NCBI GenBank assembly: GCA_016875165.1
Contig: VGSF01000018.1
Coordinates: 399 to 64,398, forward strand
DNA from: Deltaproteobacteria bacterium
Lineage (GTDB): Bacteria > Desulfobacterota > SM23-61
DNA: 64,000 bases
Direction: 5' to 3'
The notes under the pieces were generated by a model. It was not told the origin of the DNA. It did no database searches and saw only the letters and a list, made by a program, of their open reading frames with translations. Made by a program: the position numbers and the translations under genes. Positions 28,705 to 47,939 of the stretch are shown here, piece after piece; the stretch's first letter is position 1, and the number at the start of each line of letters is the position of its first letter.

Positions 28705-29545
28705 GTTTCAATCCTTGTTTTTATGGAACCCGCACTTCAACTTTGACAAAATCAATGATCGAAGAAGCCTTGAAAATGTTTCAATCCTTGTTTTTATGGA
28801 ACCCGCACTTCAACAGTTACTCATTCAGGAATTACAACTCCTTATATATTGTTTCAATCCTTGTTTTTATGGAACCCGCACTTCAACCGGAATTCGTGCC
28901 GCTGTCAGGATTCTCCTGACAGAGTTTCAATCCTTGTTTTTATGGAACCCGCACTTCAACAGTGCCATTCCAATTATCCAAACCACTGACATGGGGTTTC
29001 AATCCTTGTTTTTATGGAACCCGCACTTCAACAGTATGTGGACAGAAGTTAATCTTCCATTTAGAGAATGTTTCAATCCTTGTTTTTATGGAACCCGCAC
29101 TTCAACCTGTTCCTAGCGATTCTGCTGGCATCGTTTCTGAGTTGTTTCAATCCTTGTTTTTATGGAACCCGCACTTCAACCATTTCATTTTACGGCATCC
29201 GCTTCGCGGGCAGTTAGTTTCAATCCTTGTTTTTATGGAACCCGCACTTCAACCTATAATTTATCCCCGTTATCTGGCCACTAAAGAATGTTTCAATCCT
29301 TGTTTTTATGGAACCCGCACTTCAACCATAACGTTTAGAGAGATAATTAAAAGGGAGTCGAAGTTTCAATCCTTGTTTTTATGGAACCCGCACTTCAACT
29401 ATATTAATACATTACATACATTACGTACATTACTTGTTTCAATCCTTGTTTTTATGGAACCCGCACTTCAACGTAAAATGTATAGATACATTATACATTT
29501 TTCCTACGGTTTCAATCCTTGTTTTTATGGAACCCGCACTTCAAC
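28705..29545 (-). CRISPR. CRISPR array, 12 repeats and 11 spacers
   Basis: Twelve identical 37-nt repeats GTTTCAATCCTTGTTTTTATGGAACCCGCACTTCAAC start at 28705, 28778, 28851, 28924, 28996, 29070, 29144, 29217, 29290, 29363, 29436 and 29509. Spacers are 35-37 nt. The reverse complement ends in ATTGAAAC, so transcription is inferred on the minus strand, co-directional with the cas genes. Confidence 0.97.
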
Positions 29546-32394: not shown

Positions 32395-32522
32395 CTGGTC
32401 ACTGATCACTGCCCACTGATCACTGATCACTGATTACTGTTCACTTTCCTTACCGTTCCAAACCCCCTCGAAACCGACTTCCCAATCCCCCAATAATCCG
32501 GAATTTCAAAATTGACCGGAAA
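32395..32522 (-). repeat. Third copy of the cas6 3' end (last 27 codons plus stop) followed by tandem GTGAWCA heptamers
   Basis: The minus-strand reading of 32431-32522 gives VNFEIPDYWGIGKSVSRGFGTVRKVNSNQ-stop, matching the cas6 C-terminus. 32395-32445 reads GTGAACA GTAATCA GTGATCA GTGATCA GTGGGCA GTGATCA GTGACCA. Confidence 0.75.
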
Positions 32523-32882
32523 TCATCGCAGCCCTCCTCTTATAAATTCTAAAAATGCCCTAAATCCTTCAAGGGGTTCGAATGGAAACGGGGAAACCTC
32601 CACCTGGTTTTGAGAGCCCCTATGAAAATGATGCGGAAAAGTGGCTAAGGACTGCCATTGCTTGTCGGGGAAATTGTCATACCGGAAAAAAGTGCCGAGT
32701 TCATCCATGGTTTCCCAGTGAAACCCAAACCGATCAGAAAATTTTTGCGACAAGAAAGCGTCTAAAAAACTGCCGTTGATAAAAACAACCCTCAACTTAT
32801 AGTCAATTTCATAGGTATTCTTAACGATATCAGAGAATTCTATTTCCGCGATTCTTTTCAAGTCTTCGATGGTGGGCATCAA
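32523..32882 (-). CDS. TumE-family (DUF6516) toxin-like protein
   Basis: FGFHWETMDELGTFFRYDNFPDKQWQSLATFPHHFH matches the ..YHxQ..FRYDNxPHxP..TFPHHKH.. pattern of DUF6516. Confidence 0.65.
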   Translation of the reverse strand: MMPTIEDLKRIAEIEFSDIVKNTYEIDYKLRVVFINGSFLDAFLSQKFSDRFGFHWETMDELGTFFRYDNFPDKQWQSLATFPHHFHRGSQNQVEVSPFPFEPLEGFRAFLEFIRGGLR

Positions 32883-33157
32883 ACTGCCTCTGAAAGGAAT
32901 TTTTTAATCTTTTCCCTTTCCGCCTCAAGGTTATCGAAAACAAAATAGTCCTCATACCCTTTTTCTTCTGTGATAAACCCTTCTTTTACTCTCGAATCAA
33001 ATTCAAAGACATCCTTAACCCCATATTTTTTCGTCAAAATATAAATATCGGCTTCAATCTTTGCGAGCCTCTTCTCGAGATAAGTCCTGAGACTTTCCTT
33101 TATCAGCTCATCCGGCTTCATATGAAGTTCTTTCGCGACTAAATCTATAGTGGCCAT
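32879..33157 (-). CDS. 92-aa partner of the TumE-like gene
   Basis: RBS AAGGAGGG and a 4-nt overlap with the downstream gene. No family recognised. Confidence 0.45.
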   Translation of the reverse strand: MATIDLVAKELHMKPDELIKESLRTYLEKRLAKIEADIYILTKKYGVKDVFEFDSRVKEGFITEEKGYEDYFVFDNLEAEREKIKKFLSEAV

Positions 33158-33199
33158 CTTACCCTCCTTTGATCACCTTTTTCTTTTCCAACAAATTCA

Positions 33200-33372
33200 A
33201 TCTTTCCCCGTTCAACTTTCAATTCTTTGAACCGTCCCAAACCCCCTCGACAACGATCCTGAATCAAGTTCAGGACAAGCCCCCCAATTTGCCAATAATC
33301 TGGAATTTCAAAATTGACCGAAAAATGGCCGGGGAATCCAAGCATTGGGGTGCCTTTTAGGATATAGATCAA
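33200..33372 (-). repeat. Second copy of the cas6 3' end (about the last 56 codons), disrupted
   Basis: It reads ..YILKGTPMLGFPGHFSVNFEIPDYW.. like cas6 ..YYLKEVKTSLKGTPMLGFLGTFSVNFEIPDYW.. An insert of about 29 nt contains the palindrome CCTGAACTTGATTCAGG, and SRGFGTV then follows out of frame. Confidence 0.75.
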
Positions 33373-33596
33373 TCATGCTTCTTTTGACCATATTCTTCCT
33401 GATTTTCGTGTACGGCTCCAACCGAGATGGAAGTGGGTTCGACCAATCGGCTTTTCAGTCTGTCCCAAAGCGGATCCCTTTCGATAAGCTCTCGGGTCTT
33501 TTTGCGCTTCTCAACCCATGAGAGTCCCTGATCTTCTTCGTCAATTTCCACCCGCCGTCTGCGCATCCAGGCAACAGCATCAAAGGTTTTCTTCAT
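33369..33596 (-). CDS. 75-aa partner of the PIN-like gene
   Basis: MKKTFDAVAWMRRRRVEIDEEDQGLSWVEKRKKTRELIERDPLW.. It overlaps the PIN-like gene end. Confidence 0.45.
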   Translation of the reverse strand: MKKTFDAVAWMRRRRVEIDEEDQGLSWVEKRKKTRELIERDPLWDRLKSRLVEPTSISVGAVHENQEEYGQKKHD

Positions 33597-34050
33597 GGGA
33601 CAACACCTCCCTCGGAGTACGAATTTCAATCAATCCGTAGCCTTGCTCTAAATTAACGGCATTGAACAGCCGTATTTTGTCTAAATTGACGACATGCTTA
33701 AAATTCCAACTGACTAACACGTCCACGTGAGCAACCGTCGCCAAAGCTACATGAAAAGCATCCGACCGACTACCAGGGCCAACGATCCCATGGGCCAGAT
33801 ATGCTTCTGCCAAAGCATCGGCTTCCGGTGTATCTGCAAGTATGATCTGATGCGCCACAGGAATATCAAGAAGGTGTGCACGCACGTTTTCAGGAGCTCC
33901 GCTTAATTCTCGAAGAGTATGTTCCGACAGAACCTGCATAAAAACGCCCTTGATGAAAAGGCGCCACAGTGAGAGACTGGGTTTAGCAAATTCGCTGTCC
34001 TCGCAACCGCCAATAGCCGAGGCATCAACATAAATATAAAGCCTCTTCAT
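33580..34050 (-). CDS. PIN-like domain protein (VapC-type toxin candidate)
   Basis: MKRLYIYVDASAIGG.. and ..DAFHVALATVAHVDVLVSWNFKHV.. fit the acidic-residue spacing of PIN-like toxins. Confidence 0.55.
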   Translation of the reverse strand: MKRLYIYVDASAIGGCEDSEFAKPSLSLWRLFIKGVFMQVLSEHTLRELSGAPENVRAHLLDIPVAHQIILADTPEADALAEAYLAHGIVGPGSRSDAFHVALATVAHVDVLVSWNFKHVVNLDKIRLFNAVNLEQGYGLIEIRTPREVLSHEENL

Positions 34051-34114
34051 CTGTATCTCTCCCCACCTAACTTCGTCCCCGTCTCCCATTTCGTCATTTT
34101 TTACTGATCACTCC

Positions 34115-34798
34115 TCACTGTTCACTCTTCACTTTTTTTATCGTCCCAAATCCCCTCGACACCGACTTCCCAATCCCCCAATAATCCGGAATTTCAAAGT
34201 TGACGGAAAAGGTGCCCAAAAACCCAAGCATGGGAGTGCCTTTGAGGGAAGTTTTAACTTCCTTAAGATAATAGATATTCGCCTCGATTGGAGCCGGCAC
34301 CGTATACCCCAGACTCTTCGACATCGAAATAATATTGCCAATCATTATCTTCTCGAGGAGTTGCTTCTTCTTCCCCCAAGTGCCCAACATCTGGTATTTT
34401 TCGTAATTCTTTTCATTTAAGGCAAGCCAGGGGGTGAGGAAGGAGTAGGATTGAACGGTCTCAGTGGTTTTTATTGGGGTATGATGAAATTCTAATTCTG
34501 TAGTAAGGATAGTATAATTTCCACACCCTAAAAAAAGTGTTTTTGCCGCCAGATCAAGATTGGCAAGGAGTTTTGCTCCGTCCTTAAATCCAACAAGCAG
34601 ACAATTACCATTAATTATCTTATACTGAACCAGCGGATGGTGGTAATCAATTTTCCCATTTTCACGATGTTGATGAAGTAATCGTTCTTCGGGATAGAGA
34701 TTGGATACTGCTCCGCGCAAGTCTTTGGTTTTAACTTTCCGATCAAGGGGTCGGTCAAATTTAAGTTTGAGAATACAGAGACTTATTTTACTATTCAT
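34115..34798 (-). CDS. cas6: Cas6 pre-crRNA endoribonuclease
   Basis: N-terminal ..LRGAVSNLYPEERLLHQH..YHHPLVQYK.. and C-terminal glycine-rich loop SRGFGTIKKV. The start overlaps the cas3 end by 4 nt. Confidence 0.8.
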   Translation of the reverse strand: MNSKISLCILKLKFDRPLDRKVKTKDLRGAVSNLYPEERLLHQHRENGKIDYHHPLVQYKIINGNCLLVGFKDGAKLLANLDLAAKTLFLGCGNYTILTTELEFHHTPIKTTETVQSYSFLTPWLALNEKNYEKYQMLGTWGKKKQLLEKIMIGNIISMSKSLGYTVPAPIEANIYYLKEVKTSLKGTPMLGFLGTFSVNFEIPDYWGIGKSVSRGFGTIKKVKSEQ

Positions 34799-38844: not shown

Positions 38845-40824
38845 TTATTTTTCCTCCTTTTTCGGTAAGATTGTTGTGGTCATAGACTGACCCAGCAACA
38901 GATAATAGTTAGTTGGTATCTCACCCAACTCAATATTATCTCCCAGCCTCCAGCCAAGATTCCCAATCTCAGCAATAAGTTCCCTCACATCTTCGCTCTT
39001 TTCGGTTTCATAAGATAGGAGCTTTTCCCTGGTTTTAATATACAATTCAGGAAGGTCTCTTCCCTTCAATGTACACCGTTTAAGCCAGGTAAGGGCATTT
39101 GCACCTACATTAACACCCCTTGCCCCTTGGACTTGAAGCACCTTTCCATAAAGCACACCAAGCAAGAAGGCATACGCCTTTTGTGGAGAATCAATCCCAC
39201 TTTCAGCGCCAAAATAGAGATTCAATCTCTCCATCTGCGGTTCGTAATATTTGTCTTCCATACTCATCACCTCCAATTTCTTAAAATAATATAACCACCA
39301 GCACAGATTTCTTATCCAACCAGCAGCAGTTAAAAAGGTCTCTCCAGTTTTCTTTCGGCCTTCGTAAAGAAGACTATTGTATCCTTTATCTTTTTGAATA
39401 GCATTCAGCCAATAGACTCGGGCAATAGTCATAATTTCTTCCCAGAATCTTACCGTTGGAATCTCTGTTTTGTGATATACAGAGGCAGCTATTGCTTTCT
39501 TTAATTGATGAAGTTTCATACTTGCGTCTGGACGATAAAATAGTGTTTTTAATGCCCTAAGTGATAAATCAGGGTGGAAGTTGATTCTTTTATCAGAAAA
39601 AAACATTATTTCTGGAAAAAGAGGATGTTTCCAATCCCGTGATTCCTCATTAACCTTTGATAGCTCAGTCAATCTACCTGGTGGCACATTCGTTATCATA
39701 CCTGTTACATCTTCTATATTTTGCCCAACTGTAGCCCAGAGGAAAGTAAGATTTAATATCCCTTTTTTATCCTTAAGGATGTCCAAAATCGTTAGCTCAG
39801 CCTCTTCCACATCAGAAGGTACAGTCTTCACAATGTCCTTTACTGCTTTCCAAATACTCTGTCTCGCATGGTAGTCTACTGTAGTAAATGGGATTACAAC
39901 AGCATTCTCTCCTGCAATAGGGGTGATAAAGGAATTCTGGTTTTTAGAGTCCTTTTTCAGGAAGTGGAATTTATATATATACAGCAGATCAGCACAGGCA
40001 TTACAGAGGGCATATCCTTTCCATGCTTGAGTTGTATCAATACCAGGAAAGGCTCCTGCTCTATCAGCATTGCTTATGTTAATGCCAGCACCTTTCAGAG
40101 CATTCGGGAAAACAGTAACACCTGTTGCGCCACATAGAGGACAGGTTTGATTATCTACAGCAGGTGTATTGCCAGTAACATATCTTGTTCCGGCAAGTTT
40201 TTCAGTCATCAGATAGGTGAGATATTCTGGTCGTTGACCAGGAAGTTTCCCGCTGCTATCCTTAATAGCAAGAAATACAGTCTGTTTCTGTTCGCCAATT
40301 TTATCAACCGCAGCGGCGAGAAGATTTTCGTAACCAACATCTTTCCAACAGACAATAGAGTTATCTATAAGTTTGAGTTGTGGACGATTCAGCAACCCTA
40401 CAATTTCATTAAAATAAGGTGACCACGGTTTATTATCACCAGCAATTTCCTCAAATGATTCAATAGTTGTTTTAAGGATTTTAGTGGAAGGTCCTGGACC
40501 TCCTGCCTTACTATAGCTGCGTTTTATTACTGGCCCAATCTGTGCCCCTTGAGAACCAGATGGCCTCATAAACGGTAGCCACCTTGCCTTTTCTTCAGTC
40601 ATATCTTCAGGAGACAGCCTGACAATGTCTTGGTCTACATCCTTCTCAAGAATATAGATTTTTTCAACATTTTCTCCACTCTCAACCAAAAATGGAAACA
40701 GCCGTTCAGGGTGATCGGTGCGTAACTTGTGATACCATTCTTCCAGATTTTGAGGCGGATTGTCTTTGTCTCCCAGTTTGTCAAAAAGAGAATCCCATGC
40801 CATTGTTCTCATTGCGTTAATCAT
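38845..40824 (-). CDS. cas8b: Cas8b large subunit (TM1802/Csh1-like)
   Basis: 659 aa, located at the head of cas7-cas5-cas3, with a central zinc-ribbon-like CPLCG ... CNAC. Confidence 0.75.
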   Translation of the reverse strand: MINAMRTMAWDSLFDKLGDKDNPPQNLEEWYHKLRTDHPERLFPFLVESGENVEKIYILEKDVDQDIVRLSPEDMTEEKARWLPFMRPSGSQGAQIGPVIKRSYSKAGGPGPSTKILKTTIESFEEIAGDNKPWSPYFNEIVGLLNRPQLKLIDNSIVCWKDVGYENLLAAAVDKIGEQKQTVFLAIKDSSGKLPGQRPEYLTYLMTEKLAGTRYVTGNTPAVDNQTCPLCGATGVTVFPNALKGAGINISNADRAGAFPGIDTTQAWKGYALCNACADLLYIYKFHFLKKDSKNQNSFITPIAGENAVVIPFTTVDYHARQSIWKAVKDIVKTVPSDVEEAELTILDILKDKKGILNLTFLWATVGQNIEDVTGMITNVPPGRLTELSKVNEESRDWKHPLFPEIMFFSDKRINFHPDLSLRALKTLFYRPDASMKLHQLKKAIAASVYHKTEIPTVRFWEEIMTIARVYWLNAIQKDKGYNSLLYEGRKKTGETFLTAAGWIRNLCWWLYYFKKLEVMSMEDKYYEPQMERLNLYFGAESGIDSPQKAYAFLLGVLYGKVLQVQGARGVNVGANALTWLKRCTLKGRDLPELYIKTREKLLSYETEKSEDVRELIAEIGNLGWRLGDNIELGEIPTNYYLLLGQSMTTTILPKKEEK

Positions 40825-40888
40825 TGAATACCACTCCTTTTTAAAAATTAGACAGCTTTAATCTCTATCTGCCATTTGCCGATTTATC

Positions 40889-41041
40889 TTATTGCAGAAA
40901 GCATAACTTACTTCCCATATGCCCATGAAATTCTGGACTATTTCTATGTAAATTCCCGAAAAACCCACGGATGGCGCGGCCATCGCTAAGTGCCAATGGA
41001 TTTTCAGTGGTTATCCAGATCTCGGTCTTTTCGAGGTTCAT
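40889..41041 (-). pseudogene. 50-codon ORF resembling the N-terminus of a Cas6/RAMP protein, truncated
   Basis: In MNLEKTEIWITTENPLALSDGRAIRGFFGNLHRNSPEFHGHMGSKLCFLQ-stop, the RGFF..PE.H segment resembles Thermus-type Cas6 N-termini as I recall them. It lies 66 nt upstream of cas8b. Confidence 0.35.
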
Positions 41042-41165
41042 AGATACCAGTGTCAGTGTCAGCGGTTGGTGAAAGGCGCAACCTAAGGCTGCGGCTGCCT
41101 TCCCCTCACCCTGCCCTCTCCCGCCAGGGGAAACATTAATTTCTCCCGCCAGGGGAGAGGGAATT
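40981..41165 (-). repeat. Direct repeat D, copy 1
   Basis: Hand alignment to 42597-42770 gives about 18 mismatches over roughly 140 nt. It includes REP-like GGGAGAGGG palindromes and the first 21 codons of the RAMP-like ORF. Confidence 0.75.
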
Positions 41166-41255
41166 TCGATCCCGCGATGCGCGGGACTCAGGGCACGCCC
41201 AACCCCCTCCCGCCAGGAGAGAGGGAAAGGACGCTGTATTGCCCGGATAGAAGAA

Positions 41256-41942
41256 TCAAGGGTTAATGGGGTGATATACCCTGGTCCTCGACATAAGTTT
41301 CTTTATGCTATCTTTCGGGAACCACAAATCTATTTCCTTGAAGGTTACTTTGAGCTTGCCTAATTCCTCTCTAAAATTATGGATATTCTTTTGGGGTATA
41401 GCTACGACACCAGCTCCTACACGCATCCCCTGCAATGTTTGAACGATTCCCAATTTTTCGCTCTCATACGATTTATCCTTTATAAGTTTTCTTGTTTTTT
41501 GACCATATAATATCCTTTTAACTTTCATCTTATTCTTAGGATTCAAATTCGCAAGGCCAAACGTTACAAGCACATAATGTTCTAATTCCAAACCGTTAAC
41601 TGTTATTGAAGGAGACCTCGAAAATAAAAGGATCCCTTCCTTCATCACCACTTCCATAAAATGATCATCTAAGCCTGCAAAGTTTTTGTTTGTGAAAATA
41701 AGTTGAATACTTTTCCCGTATTCTTTCTCCAGGCTAAAAGCGAGTTCCGAGATTCTCGTTCTTGCTTCAACTTCTTCAAAATCCCTGTTATAGGAATCCA
41801 AAACTACCAACAAATCTATATCAGATCGTCTATCGGCATCGCCTTTGGCTACCGACCCAAATAAGAATATGTGAGCGACTTCCTCTACCGAGGCGTGCTT
41901 TGCAAATTTAAAAACCAAGTCTTTAAATTCATCTTGTATCAT
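41256..41942 (-). CDS. Nucleotidyltransferase with a C-terminal ferredoxin-like (Cas2/PaaX-middle-like?) domain
   Basis: LFGSVAKGDADRRSDIDLLVV NTase motif. The C-terminal half (HYVLVTFGLANLNPKNKMKVKRILYG ... LQGMRVGAGVVAIP) has a Cas2-like beta-alpha-beta pattern. An ATGA overlap links it to the upstream gene. Confidence 0.6.
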   Translation of the reverse strand: MIQDEFKDLVFKFAKHASVEEVAHIFLFGSVAKGDADRRSDIDLLVVLDSYNRDFEEVEARTRISELAFSLEKEYGKSIQLIFTNKNFAGLDDHFMEVVMKEGILLFSRSPSITVNGLELEHYVLVTFGLANLNPKNKMKVKRILYGQKTRKLIKDKSYESEKLGIVQTLQGMRVGAGVVAIPQKNIHNFREELGKLKVTFKEIDLWFPKDSIKKLMSRTRVYHPINP

Positions 41943-42298
41943 TCTGGCACTCCGCAAATTGCTTCAACAAATCGAAAGAGCTCTTGCGTCCTTCTAAGTT
42001 TCTTACCGTCAATTGCTCCTCCATAAATCTGTCCGGGCCTTATCTGATTTTCAATCTCTTGAAATGACCTCCAAACCTTTTCAGTATTCTCTCCAAAAAT
42101 CTCTTGATTATTTTCCAGGATCAATCTGACCTTCTGAAGTTTCTCAAGGTGAATTCCCAACTCAGCTGCTTTCGATTCTATTAAATGGAAAAGAGCATTA
42201 AAGTAAGCTTCTATCCTTGTCGGAATTGAATTTATTTCATTTTCGGCATCGTGCTTGAACATGAGATACTTCTCCTTATGAGAGTTAGAATCCGACAC
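41939..42298 (-). CDS. HEPN-like helical partner protein
   Basis: AYFNALFHLIESKAAELGIH resembles the ..YYAxFHAxxALL..GI..H.. helix of KNTase_C-type HEPN domains. The Rx4-6H motif is not obvious. Confidence 0.4.
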   Translation of the reverse strand: MSDSNSHKEKYLMFKHDAENEINSIPTRIEAYFNALFHLIESKAAELGIHLEKLQKVRLILENNQEIFGENTEKVWRSFQEIENQIRPGQIYGGAIDGKKLRRTQELFRFVEAICGVPE

Positions 42299-42412
42299 AT
42301 TCTTCTCTTTTCGTCATACTATATCACGAAAGTGCGGTTTTTGTTGTATTTCGTTATATTATATTGCGAATTATCCGAAATTAAATTGCCCAGACCACCA
42401 TGAAAACCGATT

Positions 42413-42520
42413 GTGTGAAAAATGGGACCTTCGGGCAGAAGGGACCTTAGATTCTTTATTCTTAGATAAAAAGGTCCCCCATTCCCCAGCATAAAAAAAA
42501 TCTCCAGGATTACGGATCTT
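42413..42520 (-). repeat. Direct repeat H, copy 1
   Basis: GTGTGAAAAATGGGACCTTCGGGCAGAAGG...CATTCCCCAGCATAAAAAAAATCTCCAGGATTACGGATCTT aligns to 43852-43953. Confidence 0.7.
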
Positions 42521-42596
42521 CATAAATTCCTTTGGGCCCCCGCTTTATAAAAGGGACATCCTAAGCTGAAAACTAATTTTCATTCTTGGAGTTTCC

Positions 42597-42770
42597 GTCG
42601 CTAAGTTCCAATGGATTTTCAGTGGTTATCCAGATCTCTGTCTTTTCGATCTTCATAGATATCAATGTAAGTGTCAGCGGTTAAGGAATGGCGCGACCCA
42701 GGGCTGTGGCTGCCTCCCCCTCACCCTACCCTCTTTCACGAGGGGAGAGGGAGCTGGAGGGAGGAGCATA
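42597..42770 (-). repeat. Direct repeat D, copy 2
   Basis: It carries MKIEKTEIWITTENPLELSDG, then diverges (..NSKNEN-stop). Confidence 0.75.
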
Positions 42771-42799
42771 TTCAAGAGGGGAGAGCGGTTGTTATCTGA

Positions 42800-43495
42800 T
42801 TATCCTGATTTTCCGATACTCTTTTTTATCAGTTTTCTCGCCAGCCCTTTAAAGAAAACAGCCATCTCCTGGTCTTGACATTCTTTCTTCATATTCAGCA
42901 GTTCTACTCCCTTTTCCGGACATTCCAAGAACCTTCCTTGAAGGATATACCTTAACCCTTTGATGCCGAATTTTTGTTCCGTGGCCTCGACCATTTCATC
43001 GATGGACGGTTTTGGACAATCTCTCAAGATAAAATAAATGTCCACATAGTCTTTCACATCCTTCCTGTCTGTCAATGCCATGAATTTATTAGCCAAGATG
43101 TCGAGGATGCTATCAACCTGTATTCCCTCAACCCTCTTGAATGGTTTAATCGTTTTAAATGGATATTTTGTGAATTCCACTTTTAAGTATCCAGCGTCTC
43201 GGTACCGGATTATGAATATTTTTCTATCGAACTTCCTTTCGAGATTTAAATCTTGAACCTCCGGTAGGGATTTCAAAAAGGCCAAAATGAGTTCTGTTTC
43301 AACCTCCTCCTCGGTGAAGAAGTCGAGGTCTTCCGATAGACGATGTCGGAGGAAAAAGGCTGACAAAGCGGTCCCAGCCGTAATATAAAACTTCGAAGCC
43401 CCGGGCCATTCTGCAAAATGCCTTAATAAGATCTTCTGATGTTTTGTAAGAATAGGATTATTTTTTATTTTTTCCACTCTTCTCCTCCCAGGCAT
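42800..43495 (-). CDS. Nucleotidyltransferase AbiEii/AbiGii-family toxin (DUF1814)
   Basis: FYITAGTALSAFFLRHRLSEDLDFFTEEEV and ..VKDYVDIYFIL.. Confidence 0.7.
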   Translation of the reverse strand: MPGRRRVEKIKNNPILTKHQKILLRHFAEWPGASKFYITAGTALSAFFLRHRLSEDLDFFTEEEVETELILAFLKSLPEVQDLNLERKFDRKIFIIRYRDAGYLKVEFTKYPFKTIKPFKRVEGIQVDSILDILANKFMALTDRKDVKDYVDIYFILRDCPKPSIDEMVEATEQKFGIKGLRYILQGRFLECPEKGVELLNMKKECQDQEMAVFFKGLARKLIKKSIGKSG

Positions 43496-43730
43496 TCTTG
43501 TATTCTTCTACGAGCAGTCTTGTGGTCTCATCCATCCTAAGCTTTCCCATCATTTTGTAAAGCCTAAACACGGTCTCTCTATCCCGGCCATAAACCGGGA
43601 AAAAATCGGCTATCCTTTGAAGCCTCCACAGTGGATCATCGGGAGGCTTTTTGTAATCCCATAGCAGCTCTTTGGGAATCTCAATTGCTTGGGCGTTCGT
43701 TCGTTTAATAACAATTCTCTTTTGACCCAT
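43458..43730 (-). CDS. Antitoxin-like partner of the AbiEii-type gene
   Basis: 90-aa ORF overlapping the toxin start. ..LWDYKKPPDDPLW.. resembles the partner at 7831-8172 (..FFWDYDFKKL..). Confidence 0.45.
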   Translation of the reverse strand: MGQKRIVIKRTNAQAIEIPKELLWDYKKPPDDPLWRLQRIADFFPVYGRDRETVFRLYKMMGKLRMDETTRLLVEEYKNAWEEKSGKNKK

Positions 43731-43851
43731 TTATAAATCTCCTCTTTTCACTTGTATTTAGGCACTTGTTGGGTTAAAAATACTCCCCCTTGAATCTTCA
43801 AAACAGATTTTCAGGTATTGCTGAAAGTCCATATACAAGTTTATGGGTCTG

Positions 43852-43953
43852 AGTGAAAAATGGAACGTTCGTGCAGAACGTGCATCACATTCCTTATTCT
43901 TAAAAAAGTTGCCTCATTCCCCAGCATCCCAAAAATCTCCGGGATTCAGGATT
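43852..43953 (-). repeat. Direct repeat H, copy 2
   Basis: AGTGAAAAATGGAACGTTCGTGCAGAACGT...CATTCCCCAGCATCCCAAAAATCTCCGGGATTCAGGATTT. Confidence 0.7.
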
Positions 43954-44137
43954 TAAAGGCAAAAGCGATGTTACGAGTTTCCGGTTCCAAGTTTCAGGTT
44001 ATTATTCCGGCAACCAAATACAACAAAAATAATCATTCCCGTGAAGGCGGGTATCCAAGAAAATACTGGATGCCGGATCAAGTCCGGCAAGACGGAGTTA
44101 ATCTTTTATATTATCTGGTTAATAAAAATTCTTTATT

Positions 44138-44695
44138 TCAAACCGTGGCTTTATAGCAAGATCTTTTTTTCCGTAGCTGAAATCCAATCTTTTTCTTTCG
44201 AGTTTCCCTTTCCACCATCAATTGCCGGATTGCTGATACGAGAGATCGGATTGCCTCGTCATGACTGCCAATTTTCCGTTCTAATTCGGCAAATTTTAAG
44301 GCTAATTCCTTATGGCTGGCTAACATTTCACGCAGTTTAACGAAAGCTCGCACCACATATACACTGACTTCTGTGGCCCGTGGCGTATTGAGGATGGCAG
44401 CCAACATGATCGCCCCATGCTCAGTGAAGGCAAATGGAGCATAGCGTTGTCCACCTCGGCCCATTTTTGAGGTCGCAATTTGCGACCTCAAAAAATCGAT
44501 TTCTGATGGATCCAATTGAAACACAAAGTCATCAGGAAAACGGTCTTTATTCCGTTTCACCTTTTCATTCAGGCGCTTGGTGGGCACTCCATAAAGCTTG
44601 GCAAGATCAGCATCCAGCATAACCTTCTTGCCGCGGATAAATAAGATCACATGTTGCATGCGCTCAATTGGAATCGGAGGTTTTATTTTGGTCAT
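44138..44695 (-). CDS. ORF6N-domain DNA-binding protein
   Basis: ..IRGKKVMLDADLAKLYGVPTKRLNEKVKRNKDRFPDDFVFQL..QRYAPFAFTEHGAIMLAAIL.. Confidence 0.7.
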   Translation of the reverse strand: MTKIKPPIPIERMQHVILFIRGKKVMLDADLAKLYGVPTKRLNEKVKRNKDRFPDDFVFQLDPSEIDFLRSQIATSKMGRGGQRYAPFAFTEHGAIMLAAILNTPRATEVSVYVVRAFVKLREMLASHKELALKFAELERKIGSHDEAIRSLVSAIRQLMVERETRKKKIGFQLRKKRSCYKATV

Positions 44696-45176
44696 ATTTT
44701 ACCTTTGAAAATAGGATGTGAAAAGCAGATCCCCATGATATAAAATCATTTGGCGCCGGGGTGATTCCGCTGAAGACATGGAGCGGCTGATTGGGGTTGG
44801 CTATTACTTCGCTGATAGTCTGGATGAGATGGAATAGGCGCTGTGTTTTCATTTTGCTCCCAGATAATTCAAGGTAAATTTGAATTCCAGGAAAATCAAA
44901 GCGCCAGTCTCAATTTGGCGACTGGGAAGAATGATTCTGAAACACTTACTGGCAAGGATGCGGCTTCATCTCGATCTCGAAATACGAAATATACAGAATC
45001 CGCAGGAAAAGTCAAGAAAAACTGCCATTCCCAAGGTTCGTGTCATTTATCCCGGCATTCGCCGGACGGACTCCAAATTTATCTTTGGGAGTGACCCGGC
45101 GAACGGTGAAATGTTTGACGAAATCTTAAACTCTCTTCCGGTTCCTTGCCAAATTTGAGGAAAGTTTCTCTTTAAC

Positions 45177-45470
45177 CTATTCATTGAGTCTGCGCCCCAG
45201 GTCTGCATTGGTAGCCAGCATTCGCCGCAGGCGCACGAAAGCTCTCATAATTTCTATGTTGACGTAAATCGCGCGGTCACTCCGCAGGACGGTGGAGAGC
45301 ATGGCCACTCCTTGTTCGGGAAAGCCATCGGGAGATATTTGGAATGTTCTCCTCTTTTAAAGGTGCCAATTTGGCGCCTTACACCATCATACTCCTCGCT
45401 GGTCAATTCAAACCTGAAGTCCGGTGATAATAGGAAATCGTCGCTGGCAAAGCTGAAATTATGGCTCTGG
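45177..45470 (-). pseudogene. 5'-truncated, frameshifted second ORF6N-domain gene
   Basis: The minus strand reads ..[24 protein letters not shown].. and, in another frame, ..[46 protein letters not shown]-stop. Confidence 0.5.
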
Positions 45471-45509
45471 AGTCTTCAAGATCACATTTTGAGATCTTGA
45501 TCGGAAAAA

Positions 45510-45611
45510 GACTTCAAACCTTTGAGAGAGTTTCCGGGCATTGGGGTATCGCCTTGCTTTAATCTGCCCGTGAAACCAGTGGTAGCGCTCATAAGAAAGT
45601 TTCTTACCCAC
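45510..45611 (-). pseudogene. N-terminal HTH fragment of a WYL-type regulator
   Basis: GTG-GKKLSYERYHWFHGQIKARRYPNARKLSQRFEV.. then loses similarity. The identification is from memory of YafY/WYL-family N-termini. Confidence 0.3.
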
Positions 45612-47561: not shown

Positions 47562-47939
47562 CTCGATCTCCTTGTCTTTTCAAGTTATTAACACCCCCAC
47601 CCCAACCCTCCCCCATCGAGGGGGAGGGAATTTTGGATCCCCCAGTATCTCCCCTCCCCTGGCGGGAGGGGGTTGGGGGGAGGGGGATAGAAAAGGAAAT
47701 TCCTATACAATCAAGTTAAGTGAGTATGCTTTTTCCGCGACTGCCCACGGAAAAAAAGGCCCGCCTCAGACGGGCAGCGAAAAGTCCTGAAATCCCCCCT
47801 AACCCCCCTTTGGCAAAGGGGGGAAAGGGGGATTTATCGGCAGGCATTTCCTTCTTACAAACATGTTTGTTTTAATGAGGCGCTAAGCGCCTAAAGTGCC
47901 TAAAGTTAAAAAAGCAAATTCCTATACAATAAATTTATT

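Follow-up and report, generated by a model that had tools for sequence, protein, structure and literature searches.

It is common for toxin-antitoxin (TA) pairs to be encoded inside or next to CRISPR-cas loci (PMC3973734), and RNA toxin-antitoxin pairs termed CreTA have been described inside type I-B cas operons, between cas6 and cas8 (PMC12737573). The locus analyzed here lies in a 64,000-nucleotide stretch of DNA from a Deltaproteobacteria bacterium (GTDB lineage Bacteria; Desulfobacterota; SM23-61; assembly GCA_016875165.1, contig VGSF01000018.1, positions 399 to 64,398), referred to below as the window, in which two pairs of direct repeats, D and H, surround two different two-gene units upstream of the type I-B gene cas8b. 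Comparison with related loci, given here by numbers with the prefix L, indicated that D duplicates the beginning of a cas6b gene and that such copies separate small cassettes in arrays. On balance, we consider it probable that these cassettes accrete, and that interference modules are swapped, by recombination in which cas6b ends serve as homology arms.

The minus strand is the coding strand of all genes in the region, and along it the order was an ORF6N gene, H2, a 90-amino-acid (aa) gene with an AbiEii gene, D2, H1, a 119-aa gene with a nucleotidyltransferase (NTase) gene, D1, and cas8b (Table 1). Downstream, the locus continued as cas8b-cas7-cas5-cas3-cas6b, followed after further genes by cas1-cas2-cas4 and then by a CRISPR array of 12 repeats of 37 nt each (28705-29545). 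The Cas8b of the window was identical to a protein of an NCBI metagenome-assembled genome labeled Deltaproteobacteria bacterium and to one encoded on the JGI contig Ga0194113_10000166 (77,452 nt; sample 3300020074). The initial annotation, made from the sequence alone, had described H and D as direct repeats interleaved around two different two-gene cargos, and formal alignment bore this out. The D copies aligned without gaps over 152 nt at 85.5% identity (40980-41131 versus 42595-42746; blastn E 1e-45), with the similarity extended by short pieces resembling repetitive extragenic palindromes (REP-like) to about 41163/42753, and the H copies aligned over 106 nt at 78% identity with one 3-nt indel (42412-42517 versus 43850-43952; E 1.4e-18). 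No further copy of either repeat was found within the 64-kb window. Both D copies contained a G/C-rich REP-like unit followed by an open reading frame (ORF) beginning with ATG, also as first described, and the REP-like 19-mer CTCCCGCCAGGGGAGAGGG had another occurrence at 47650. Three independent Logan assemblies of the window's strain broke exactly at a 31-nt word common to D1 and D2; the corresponding contigs (L071, L072, and L073) all start, at their position 1 (window 41022), with AGATCTGGATAACCACTGAAAATCCATTGG, the longest exact word shared by the two copies, as expected of a de Bruijn graph break caused by a repeat. The D duplication is therefore not an assembly artifact.

The 50-aa ORF of D1 matched positions 1-45 of the 105 in the Pfam model Cas6b_N (E 5.9e-5; 23.5 bits, just under the cut-off of 25) and was 69% identical over 47 aa to the intact Cas6b of related loci (tblastn E 2e-17), in agreement with the earlier observation that only the D1 ORF continues and resembles Cas6/RAMP N-termini. 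The intact D-type Cas6b of L014 passed both Pfam Cas6b models. D2 lost its similarity to D past codon 21, and the D1 ORF ran on to 50 aa; it lacks the Cas6b C-terminal domain and is a gene fragment (pseudogene). Judged from these matches, D is the 5' end of cas6b, comprising the first 21 codons and about 90 nt of upstream sequence, and not a transposon end. The cas6b that formerly headed the operon survives in D1 as a decaying 5' stump. The gap from the stop codon of the stump to the ATG of cas8b measured 64 nt, where 66 nt had been given. The intact cas6b of the window's operon, which follows cas3, was 40% identical to the D-type Cas6b of L014, and the stump matched it over only 20 aa at 30% identity. 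In the 30-40 nt 5' of the D start codon (window 41042-41075 and 42657-42690), degenerate heptamer-like repeats of the CTGACAC/CTGATCA type fill the sequence; similar repeats lie upstream of D in L016, L018, and L026, with G-rich REP-like units before them, and a 7-nt CTGATCA tandem repeat also occurs at 32395-32445, adjoining the second cas6b 3' copy described below.

Orthologues of the D1 stump, 90% identical, were present in L001, L049, and L053. Homologues of the stump retrieved by protein search were all short, and in their contigs cas8b followed the stump directly, while the stump was preceded by various genes: WYL, DUF5615 (with a weak PIN_10 hit), or AbiEii. In other loci the stump had been lost to various degrees, namely its start and codons 23-50 in L021 and L044, its 5' half in L075, and nearly all of it in L076 to L081, and about 100 nt before cas8b was kept throughout, even where the stump was gone. 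The stump is thus dispensable for the operon. Annotation pipelines call such cas6b stumps hypothetical small proteins, which is a warning for the annotation of these loci.

A scan of JGI metagenomes with the D-core pattern GARAAGACNGARATNTGGATMAC returned 52 stretches, of which about 48 were true D by translation and by an nhmmer profile. They comprised intact D-type cas6b genes of 222-229 aa (L006, L014, L017, L027/L034/L046, L031, L040, and L042), 5' stumps of about 41-56 codons preceding at least three unrelated interference modules, and a third group of many shorter partial copies. Two to four D copies were present in 16 of 54 sources, always in the same orientation and at distances of 309-1827 nt, and a Thermodesulfobacteriota metagenome-assembled genome from NCBI (L074) showed a D-delimited array as well. 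D copies with other cargo, for which the initial annotation had recommended a search, were therefore abundant in related metagenomic loci. For example, the order was D, head (the element described below), a decayed segment, D, head, 90 aa plus AbiEii, D, ORF6N, stump, and cas8b in L049; WYL, further sequence, D, MNT plus HEPN, D, head, and 119 aa plus NTase in L018; and D (84 nt), head, 79 aa plus AbiEii, and intact cas6b in L034 and L046. In total, the genes found between D copies, on the same strand, included two AbiEii subfamilies, MNT with HEPN/HepT, DUF433 with DUF5615, PIN, Phd/YefM, DUF6036, and ORF6N, and this cargo belongs to TA or abortive-infection families. The sets of cassettes differed between close relatives, so the slot upstream of the cas operon is hypervariable, as had been proposed.

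A purely local origin of the two units in the window, by one tandem duplication of H-cargo-D and later replacement of one cargo, is highly improbable. It would account for the duplication of H and D in the same order, for the CGG/AAACTC junction that precedes both H copies, and for the confinement of H to this strain; since H was found nowhere else, the H-bearing junction was probably duplicated within this lineage. However, D-delimited cassettes occurred in many unrelated samples, and both the AbiE cassette and the 119 aa plus NTase cassette had homologues elsewhere between D copies or between a D copy and an intact cas6b. Furthermore, D copies within one locus were 61-85% identical, and foreign copies were usually closer: D2 was 91.6% identical to the D copy of L016 and 85.5% identical to D1, and the copies of L012 and L018 were also closer to D2 than D1 was. 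Copies of one locus are thus not each other's nearest relatives, which disfavors a single local tandem duplication, and the divergence of the copies (22% plus an indel of about 50 nt for H; 14.5% for D) implies that any duplication was old. A local duplication is already largely refuted for D. The outcome that the initial annotation had set against its own proposal (repeats without significant similarity, D absent from related loci, a stump without a Cas6 profile match, and a single tandem duplication) likewise failed for D.

The same cassettes were found in different surroundings. The AbiE cassette adjoins an intact cas6b in L031, L034, and L046, adjoins the stump in L004 and L053, and takes the second position from the operon in both L049 and the window, and the 119 aa plus NTase cassette of the window follows the MNT/HEPN cassette in L018. 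One mosaic was formed by L031:1435-3443 and L053:1-2009 (D on the plus strand), which were 99.2% identical over 2009 nt comprising the AbiE cassette and both D copies, with 11 of the 16 mismatches inside D. From cas6b codon ~42 onward the two loci were unrelated, L031 continuing into an intact cas6b and its own module and L053 into a stump and a cas8b module of the window type. Similarly, L018 and L001 were 96.6% identical over 2159 nt of distal genes (the 340-aa protein and WYL), and L018 held two extra cassettes, each followed by a copy of REP and D; L049 and L016 were 96.7% identical over 1617 nt and then diverged. Mismatches between D copies and intact alleles were concentrated at third codon positions, and D copies are little-decayed samples of diverged functional alleles; the codon-position test is used here only for the low degree of decay, as it cannot separate in situ duplication from acquisition when the parent alleles are unsampled. 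The first 45 codons of intact cas6b showed no excess synonymous conservation, and a hidden noncoding constraint in D was rejected. Conservation of the Cas6b protein is highest over the first 75 codons, which would therefore make a good homology arm.

A mirror array was found at the opposite border of the interference module. Two further copies of the 3' end of the intact cas6b lie downstream (window 32415-34247, minus strand), and the three copies together delimit TA-like pairs before cas1, namely 169 aa plus 86 aa, 92 aa plus a TumE toxin, and two small nucleotidyltransferases. In addition, C-terminal relics of the window-type cas6b (aa ~185-227) were present behind the cas3 gene of other module types in L013, L014, L027, L039, L040, L046, and L049, at up to 98% identity at the protein level, and these relics mark a second site at which modules have repeatedly been joined. 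The interference module thus has cas6b ends, accompanied by TA-like cassettes, on either side. In L008 (oriented positions 1284-1878), only about 500 nt separates a fragment of the D start from a cas6b 3' relic, and AbiE pairs flank them on both sides, as though the entire interference module between these cas6b ends had been lost by deletion.

The junctions of the partial D copies were next to a second conserved element. Partial copies start at or upstream of the ATG, and their end positions in the hidden Markov model (HMM) are spread over 34 to 106 and are most frequent at 82-89 (about codon 28), whereas stumps and intact genes reach at least 112. In codons, the breakpoints range from ~12 to ~35 and fall into at least six junction classes counted in translations; about one-third of the partial copies end at codons 26-30, and none extends beyond about codon 35. 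The commonest junction directly abuts a conserved head of about 80 nt that contains two palindromes of 21-23 nt, with the consensus TTCGTGATAT.ATAT.ACGAA, and a ribosome-binding site (RBS) before the first cargo gene. The head was located by blastn and nhmmer in 10 other loci, immediately behind a truncated D copy and in front of the first gene of the cassette, and occupies 42385-42299 in the window. It looks like an autoregulated promoter.

These features recall integrons or Xer/dif modules, and the cassettes might be circles mobilized by a site-specific recombinase encoded elsewhere, with the cas6b 5' region as the attachment site and the head or D as the cassette-borne site; we regard this as unlikely. 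Small co-oriented cassettes that accrete beside a fixed gene with a repeated unit between them would fit such a mechanism, as would the position of the palindromic element directly behind the commonest breakpoint class (HMM end 78-89), the confinement of partial copies to the first ~35 codons, and the restoration of the target gene in L031, L034, and L046, which is seen with integrative elements that carry a copy of a gene end. However, no recombinase gene was seen in or beside any inspected array, and neither the called genes nor the ORFs next to the arrays of the window, L001, L018, L049, L070, and L074 included an IntI integrase. Breakpoints are also nonuniform, both strands of D as single-stranded DNA fold no better than shuffled sequences (z +1.3 to -0.7), unlike attC, and the palindrome arms show no compensatory changes. 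The head itself is placed where a promoter/operator with an RBS would be and was missing from many D junctions, including that of the AbiE unit in the window. The earlier alternative that H and D are the ends of a mobile unit targeting the 5' end of a cas6-like gene is unproven in view of the same lack of a recombinase in or beside the cassettes and the same spread of breakpoints. More doubtful still is the specific version in which the cas6b ends are attachment sites for a trans-acting recombinase that stacks TA or abortive-infection cassettes, the head is the cassette-side site, and the same sites swap type I-B modules. If a dedicated recombinase did act here, the system would be a new class of cassette capture, an "integron of the CRISPR locus."

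Under homologous recombination between cas6b ends, the explanation that we prefer, the two H-cargo-D units of the window would be the last two members of an array of TA or abortive-infection cassettes at the 5' border of the interference operon. The original cas6b would have been cut at about codon 42-55, where the present cas8b-cas7-cas5-cas3-cas6b module joined, and D2 would be a second, shorter cas6b-start copy left between two cassettes. A few illegitimate joins would have produced the order of cas6b codons 1-~28, promoter element-cargo-tail, and cas6b start, and the cassette would thereafter have had cas6b sequence on both flanks. Following DNA uptake, a double crossover could bring such a cassette into any related locus with cas6b undamaged. 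Pairing of the left arm of the donor with the resident copy beside the operon would stack cassettes, pairing of other copies would swap or remove them, and crossovers in the cas6b ends would exchange whole interference modules. The inserted TA cargo would resist loss and may add a layer of abortive infection beside CRISPR immunity. This model needs no element-encoded enzyme, and none was seen; it accounts for the common orientation of the copies, for their separate histories, and for the mosaics L031/L053, L018/L001, and L049/L016.

Several points weigh against recombination between cas6b ends. Neither the founding joins nor the pathway of recombination was observed; both are inferred, and no pair of empty and filled sites in one genetic background was found for any single cassette. 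Random illegitimate joins do not predict that partial copies are confined to the first ~35 codons or that about one-third of them end at codons 26-30; the confinement could stem from site preference or from selection against longer pieces of Cas6b, and the palindromic head at the commonest breakpoint could serve as a site of recombination instead of an operator. That the cargo acts in addiction or abortive infection is assumed solely on the basis of family names. Furthermore, loci were found through a pattern inside D, so that loci of the clade without D are undersampled, and H is not explained by the model.

H did not behave as a cassette border. When 42594-42400 was removed from the sequence, what remained of D2 (codons 1-21 and a vestige of codons ~22-28) and the head became colinear with the D/head junctions of L034, L004, L018, L026, and L049; H1 therefore sits in an insertion inside a D copy and is not a general border. 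H was absent from about 70 related loci (L001 to L056 and L070 to L081), including those with the closest cas8b orthologues, when searched by blastn with word size 7 and by an nhmmer profile of H1 and H2. The H pattern GATTTTTNNNATGCTGGGGAAT gave 13 hits in GTDB representative genomes, all matching only the 22- to 28-nt pattern region; the three in Thermodesulfovibrio lay inside conserved coding sequence (PPDK-like, by reading of the sequence) and were rejected as chance. IMG/VR gave no hits with two H patterns or with the D pattern. The proposal that H and D are the conserved borders of a hypervariable slot was thus upheld for D, as recurrent cas6b starts, and rejected for H, which is strain specific. 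We regard H as a strain-specific insertion that was either duplicated with its junction or inserted twice.

In the latter case, H could be part of a small nonautonomous insertion resembling a miniature inverted-repeat transposable element (MITE) with a preference for the surroundings of cas6b codon 21. H1 lies in a block of about 190 nt that interrupts an otherwise colinear D/head junction, both blocks begin with AAACTC right after CGG, and a CGG that closes the H1 block on its right could, by reading of the sequence, represent a 3-bp target duplication. Terminal inverted repeats were not seen in the sequence, however, the two blocks differ by about 50 nt in length, only two copies are known, with no more in the window, the ~70 related loci, the GTDB genomes (pattern-only hits), or IMG/VR, and a MITE-like origin is accordingly rated as improbable. 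The D-like sequence before H2 was not significant either: a candidate third D copy at 43975..43996 (minus strand) matched the end of D2 at 17 of 22 positions and had the same CGGAAACTC junction, but 85 of 500 shuffled sequences scored as well. A candidate decayed head after H2 was likewise rejected, as 829 of 1000 shuffles scored as well and the sequence after H2 is unrelated to the head.

Both H copies contain a short hairpin followed by a T-run (42442-42428, 5 bp; 43881-43865, 6 bp), and by reading of the sequences the hairpins differ by one true compensatory pair, C-G to G-C, which agrees with the compensatory differences first noted. Both hairpins passed a consensus scan for intrinsic terminators; their stems are short, with 4 nt before the T-run, and the region contains no more such sites than chance would give (7 found versus 6.2 expected). 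H may terminate transcripts entering from a D copy. A broader role in expression, in which each D copy would provide the cassette after it with the promoter and translation start of cas6b and H would be an insulating terminator or a small RNA, is very unlikely. Each D copy does bring 20-200 nt of cas6b upstream sequence, the H hairpin and T-run have been retained through compensatory change, and H lies between a truncated D ORF and the promoter-like head of the cassette, but the consensus scan gave no promoter-like site in D, terminator-like sites were at the chance level given above, and no Shine-Dalgarno sequence was seen by reading before the D ATG. The stump and the distal copies carry frameshifts, stops, and deletions in many loci, intact cas6b lacks excess synonymous conservation at its start, and Rfam at gathering thresholds gave zero matches, tRNAs included, across the 64 kb.

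Two further candidate functions for H were rejected. As a structured RNA, H showed folds that differ between the copies beyond the small hairpin, with only the minus strand of H2 reaching a notable z of -2.75. As a small protein, both copies have GGAG, an 8-nt spacing, and an ATG (MLGN...), but the stops differ and, in a hand comparison, only 1 of 17 changed codons was synonymous. JGI gene callers placed hypothetical proteins of 98 aa (43860-44156, plus strand) and 57 aa (42319-42492, minus strand) across H2 and H1, respectively; neither is conserved between the copies, and they are most likely not genes.

Among the cargo genes of the window, the AbiEii gene belongs to the nucleotidyltransferase family (AbiEii, DUF1814) of the toxin in type IV TA/AbiE pairs. 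Its 90-aa partner gave no Pfam or NCBIfam hit; the gene overlaps the start of AbiEii and is placed as an AbiEi-type antitoxin gene would be, but it is much shorter than a typical AbiEi. Going by family names, the unit is probably a TA pair of type IV or an abortive-infection-type pair, and its DNA is 73-80% identical to cassettes of six other loci. The NTase of the second cassette gave an NCBIfam MntA hit of 39.5 bits, under the cut-off of 60, and was 78% identical to its L018 homologue. Exact look-ups with the AbiEii and NTase ORFs of the window gave no match, probably owing to differences in start-codon calls. A Pol-beta/MNT nucleotidyltransferase, as in MNT-HEPN (type VII TA) pairs, is present, but a HEPN partner with an Rx4-6H motif was not found: the 119-aa protein, initially labeled HEPN-like, gave no Pfam or NCBIfam hit at any threshold tried (E up to 1), and the motif was not seen in its sequence. 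The gene order of this cassette, with the small protein first, is also AbiE-like and not MNT-HEPN-like.

Table 1. Coordinates of the cas6b copies, H elements, cassettes, and neighboring genes in the window
Feature	Coordinates	Strand	Evidence
D1 and cas6b stump: REP-like unit, upstream sequence, ATG (41041), ~47 recognizable codons, stop	40889..41131	-	Pfam Cas6b_N; tblastn to intact D-type Cas6b
D2: REP-like unit, ~90 nt of cas6b upstream sequence, ATG (42656), first 21 cas6b codons	42595..42746	-	
Insertion of ~190 nt inside D2; 3' part is H1 (42517-42412), hairpin 42442-42428	42400..42594	-	
H2, second H copy, terminator-like hairpin 43881-43865	43850..43953	-	
Vestige of D codons ~22-28, then promoter/operator-like head with two palindromes (42370-42350, 42331-42309) and RBS	42299..42399	-	blastn, nhmmer
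Conserved spacer directly upstream of cas8b, likely RBS/5' region	40825..40888	-	Kept in all cas8b orthologues
cas8b (Csh1/TM1802), first intact gene of the interference module	38845..40824	-	Pfam Cas_TM1802
Intact operon cas6b, lineage other than D	34115..34798	-	Pfam Cas6b_N and Cas6b_C above cut-off
First extra copy of cas6b 3' end	33210..33361	-	blastn 34247-34169 versus 33361-33283, 78%, E 2e-13; 34165-34120 versus 33256-33210, 79%
Second extra copy of cas6b 3' end, stop codon included	32415..32522	-	blastn 34209-34103 versus 32522-32415, 88% over 108 nt, E 2e-33
90-aa AbiEii partner gene, putative antitoxin	43458..43730	-	Homologues (62-72%) always precede AbiEii in L004, L031, L034, L046, L049, L053
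AbiEii-family nucleotidyltransferase, predicted toxin of type IV TA/abortive-infection pair	42800..43495	-	Pfam AbiEii E 4.4e-16, 60 bits versus cut-off 22.5
119-aa protein, first gene of second cassette	41939..42298	-	86% identical homologue in L018 behind the same head
Pol-beta-type nucleotidyltransferase, ~228-233 aa, second gene of 119-aa cassette	41256..41957	-	Pfam Polbeta E 6.4e-13, NTP_transf_2 E 1.4e-10
Intact ORF6N-domain gene, one-gene cassette	44138..44695	-	Pfam ORF6N E 1.4e-32
ORF6N gene relic, decayed cassette	45072..45381	-	tblastn with window ORF6N protein, 35% over aa 86-171; blastn to L049 ORF6N gene
WYL-type regulator N-terminus relic, distal edge of variable region	45459..45611	-	blastn 45611-45514 to WYL gene of L001 (71%), L037/L043 (80%)

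The variable region of the window spans from about 45.6 kb to cas8b and starts where L001 and L018 keep an intact regulator; the full-length L018 homologue of the WYL relic carries WYL and WCX domains. ORF6N genes were also located between D copies in L049, L005, L038, and L039. In L037/L043 (oriented positions 741-1042), a 21-codon D fragment lies upstream of the start of the WYL gene, which is 80% identical to window 45605-45525, so that D copies also occur distal to the regulator in some loci. A conserved protein of 335-340 aa with a THNDFDG motif, reminiscent of DHH phosphoesterases and without a Pfam hit, precedes the WYL regulator in L001 (7405-8427) and L018 and stands at the distal edge of the array in L032 and L034.

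The clustering of TA genes with cas genes and the exchange of cas modules were known; at this locus the junctions are legible. Copies of cas6b ends mark every cassette boundary and the module boundaries, and the structure recurs in dozens of environmental genomes. It gives a concrete recombination model for the accretion of defense cargo at a CRISPR locus, and partial cas6b starts or ends provide a simple signature for finding such arrays, and new small defense or TA cassettes, in metagenomes.

Among described systems, CreTA is similar in that TA modules lie at the cas6/cas8b border of a type I-B operon, with the plausible role of making the locus hard to lose (PMC12737573). CreTA differs in consisting of small RNAs, including a CRISPR RNA-like antitoxin with repeat-like sequences that needs Cas6 and Cascade, whereas the cargo in the window is protein coding (AbiEii and nucleotidyltransferases), and in having no flanking gene-end repeats. 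No CreA-like match to the 37-nt CRISPR repeat (ungapped, both strands, at least 21 of 37 positions) was found within the H/D units; the sole 21/37 match in 40.8-46 kb, at 44135, spans the ORF6N stop and is at background level. Integron arrays share the co-oriented small cassettes, the repeated unit between them, the differences between close relatives, and the growth beside a fixed gene, but here there is no IntI gene, the repeat is a protein-coding 5' end rather than an attC hairpin, the cassettes come with a promoter-like element of their own, and breakpoints vary.

Contact-dependent inhibition (CDI)/Rhs loci have orphan arrays of two-gene toxic/protective pairs, each adjoined by a conserved fragment of the main gene. 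These fragments provide homology for recombinational switching and are left as scars; each is joined to the toxin tip as an in-frame fusion, and the main gene is followed on its 3' side by the array. Arrays of two-gene pairs, each beside a main-gene fragment, are common to both systems, but the cargo described here is independent of cas6b, and the repeat is the 5' end of one cas6b and, in the mirror array, the 3' end of another. Genomic islands at gene ends (tRNA/tmRNA-type integration) generate direct repeats of the end of the target gene. They resemble the present arrays in that the target is intact in some loci (L031, L034, and L046) and in the tandem accretion at one site; here, in contrast, the units are 0.3-1.8 kb long and without an integrase, and the repeats are 35-150 nt with variable ends. 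Finally, defense islands and cas-module exchange share variable cargo between conserved flanks and the exchange of whole modules, as between L031 and L053, but at this locus duplicated cas6b ends delimit each cassette and mark the module junctions. No description of cas6b-end repeats that delimit cassettes was found in the literature searched, the coverage of which was incomplete. TA genes beside cas genes, CreTA in type I-B operons, and cas-module exchange are thus already known, and what appears to be new here is the occurrence of cas6b-end repeats as cassette delimiters.

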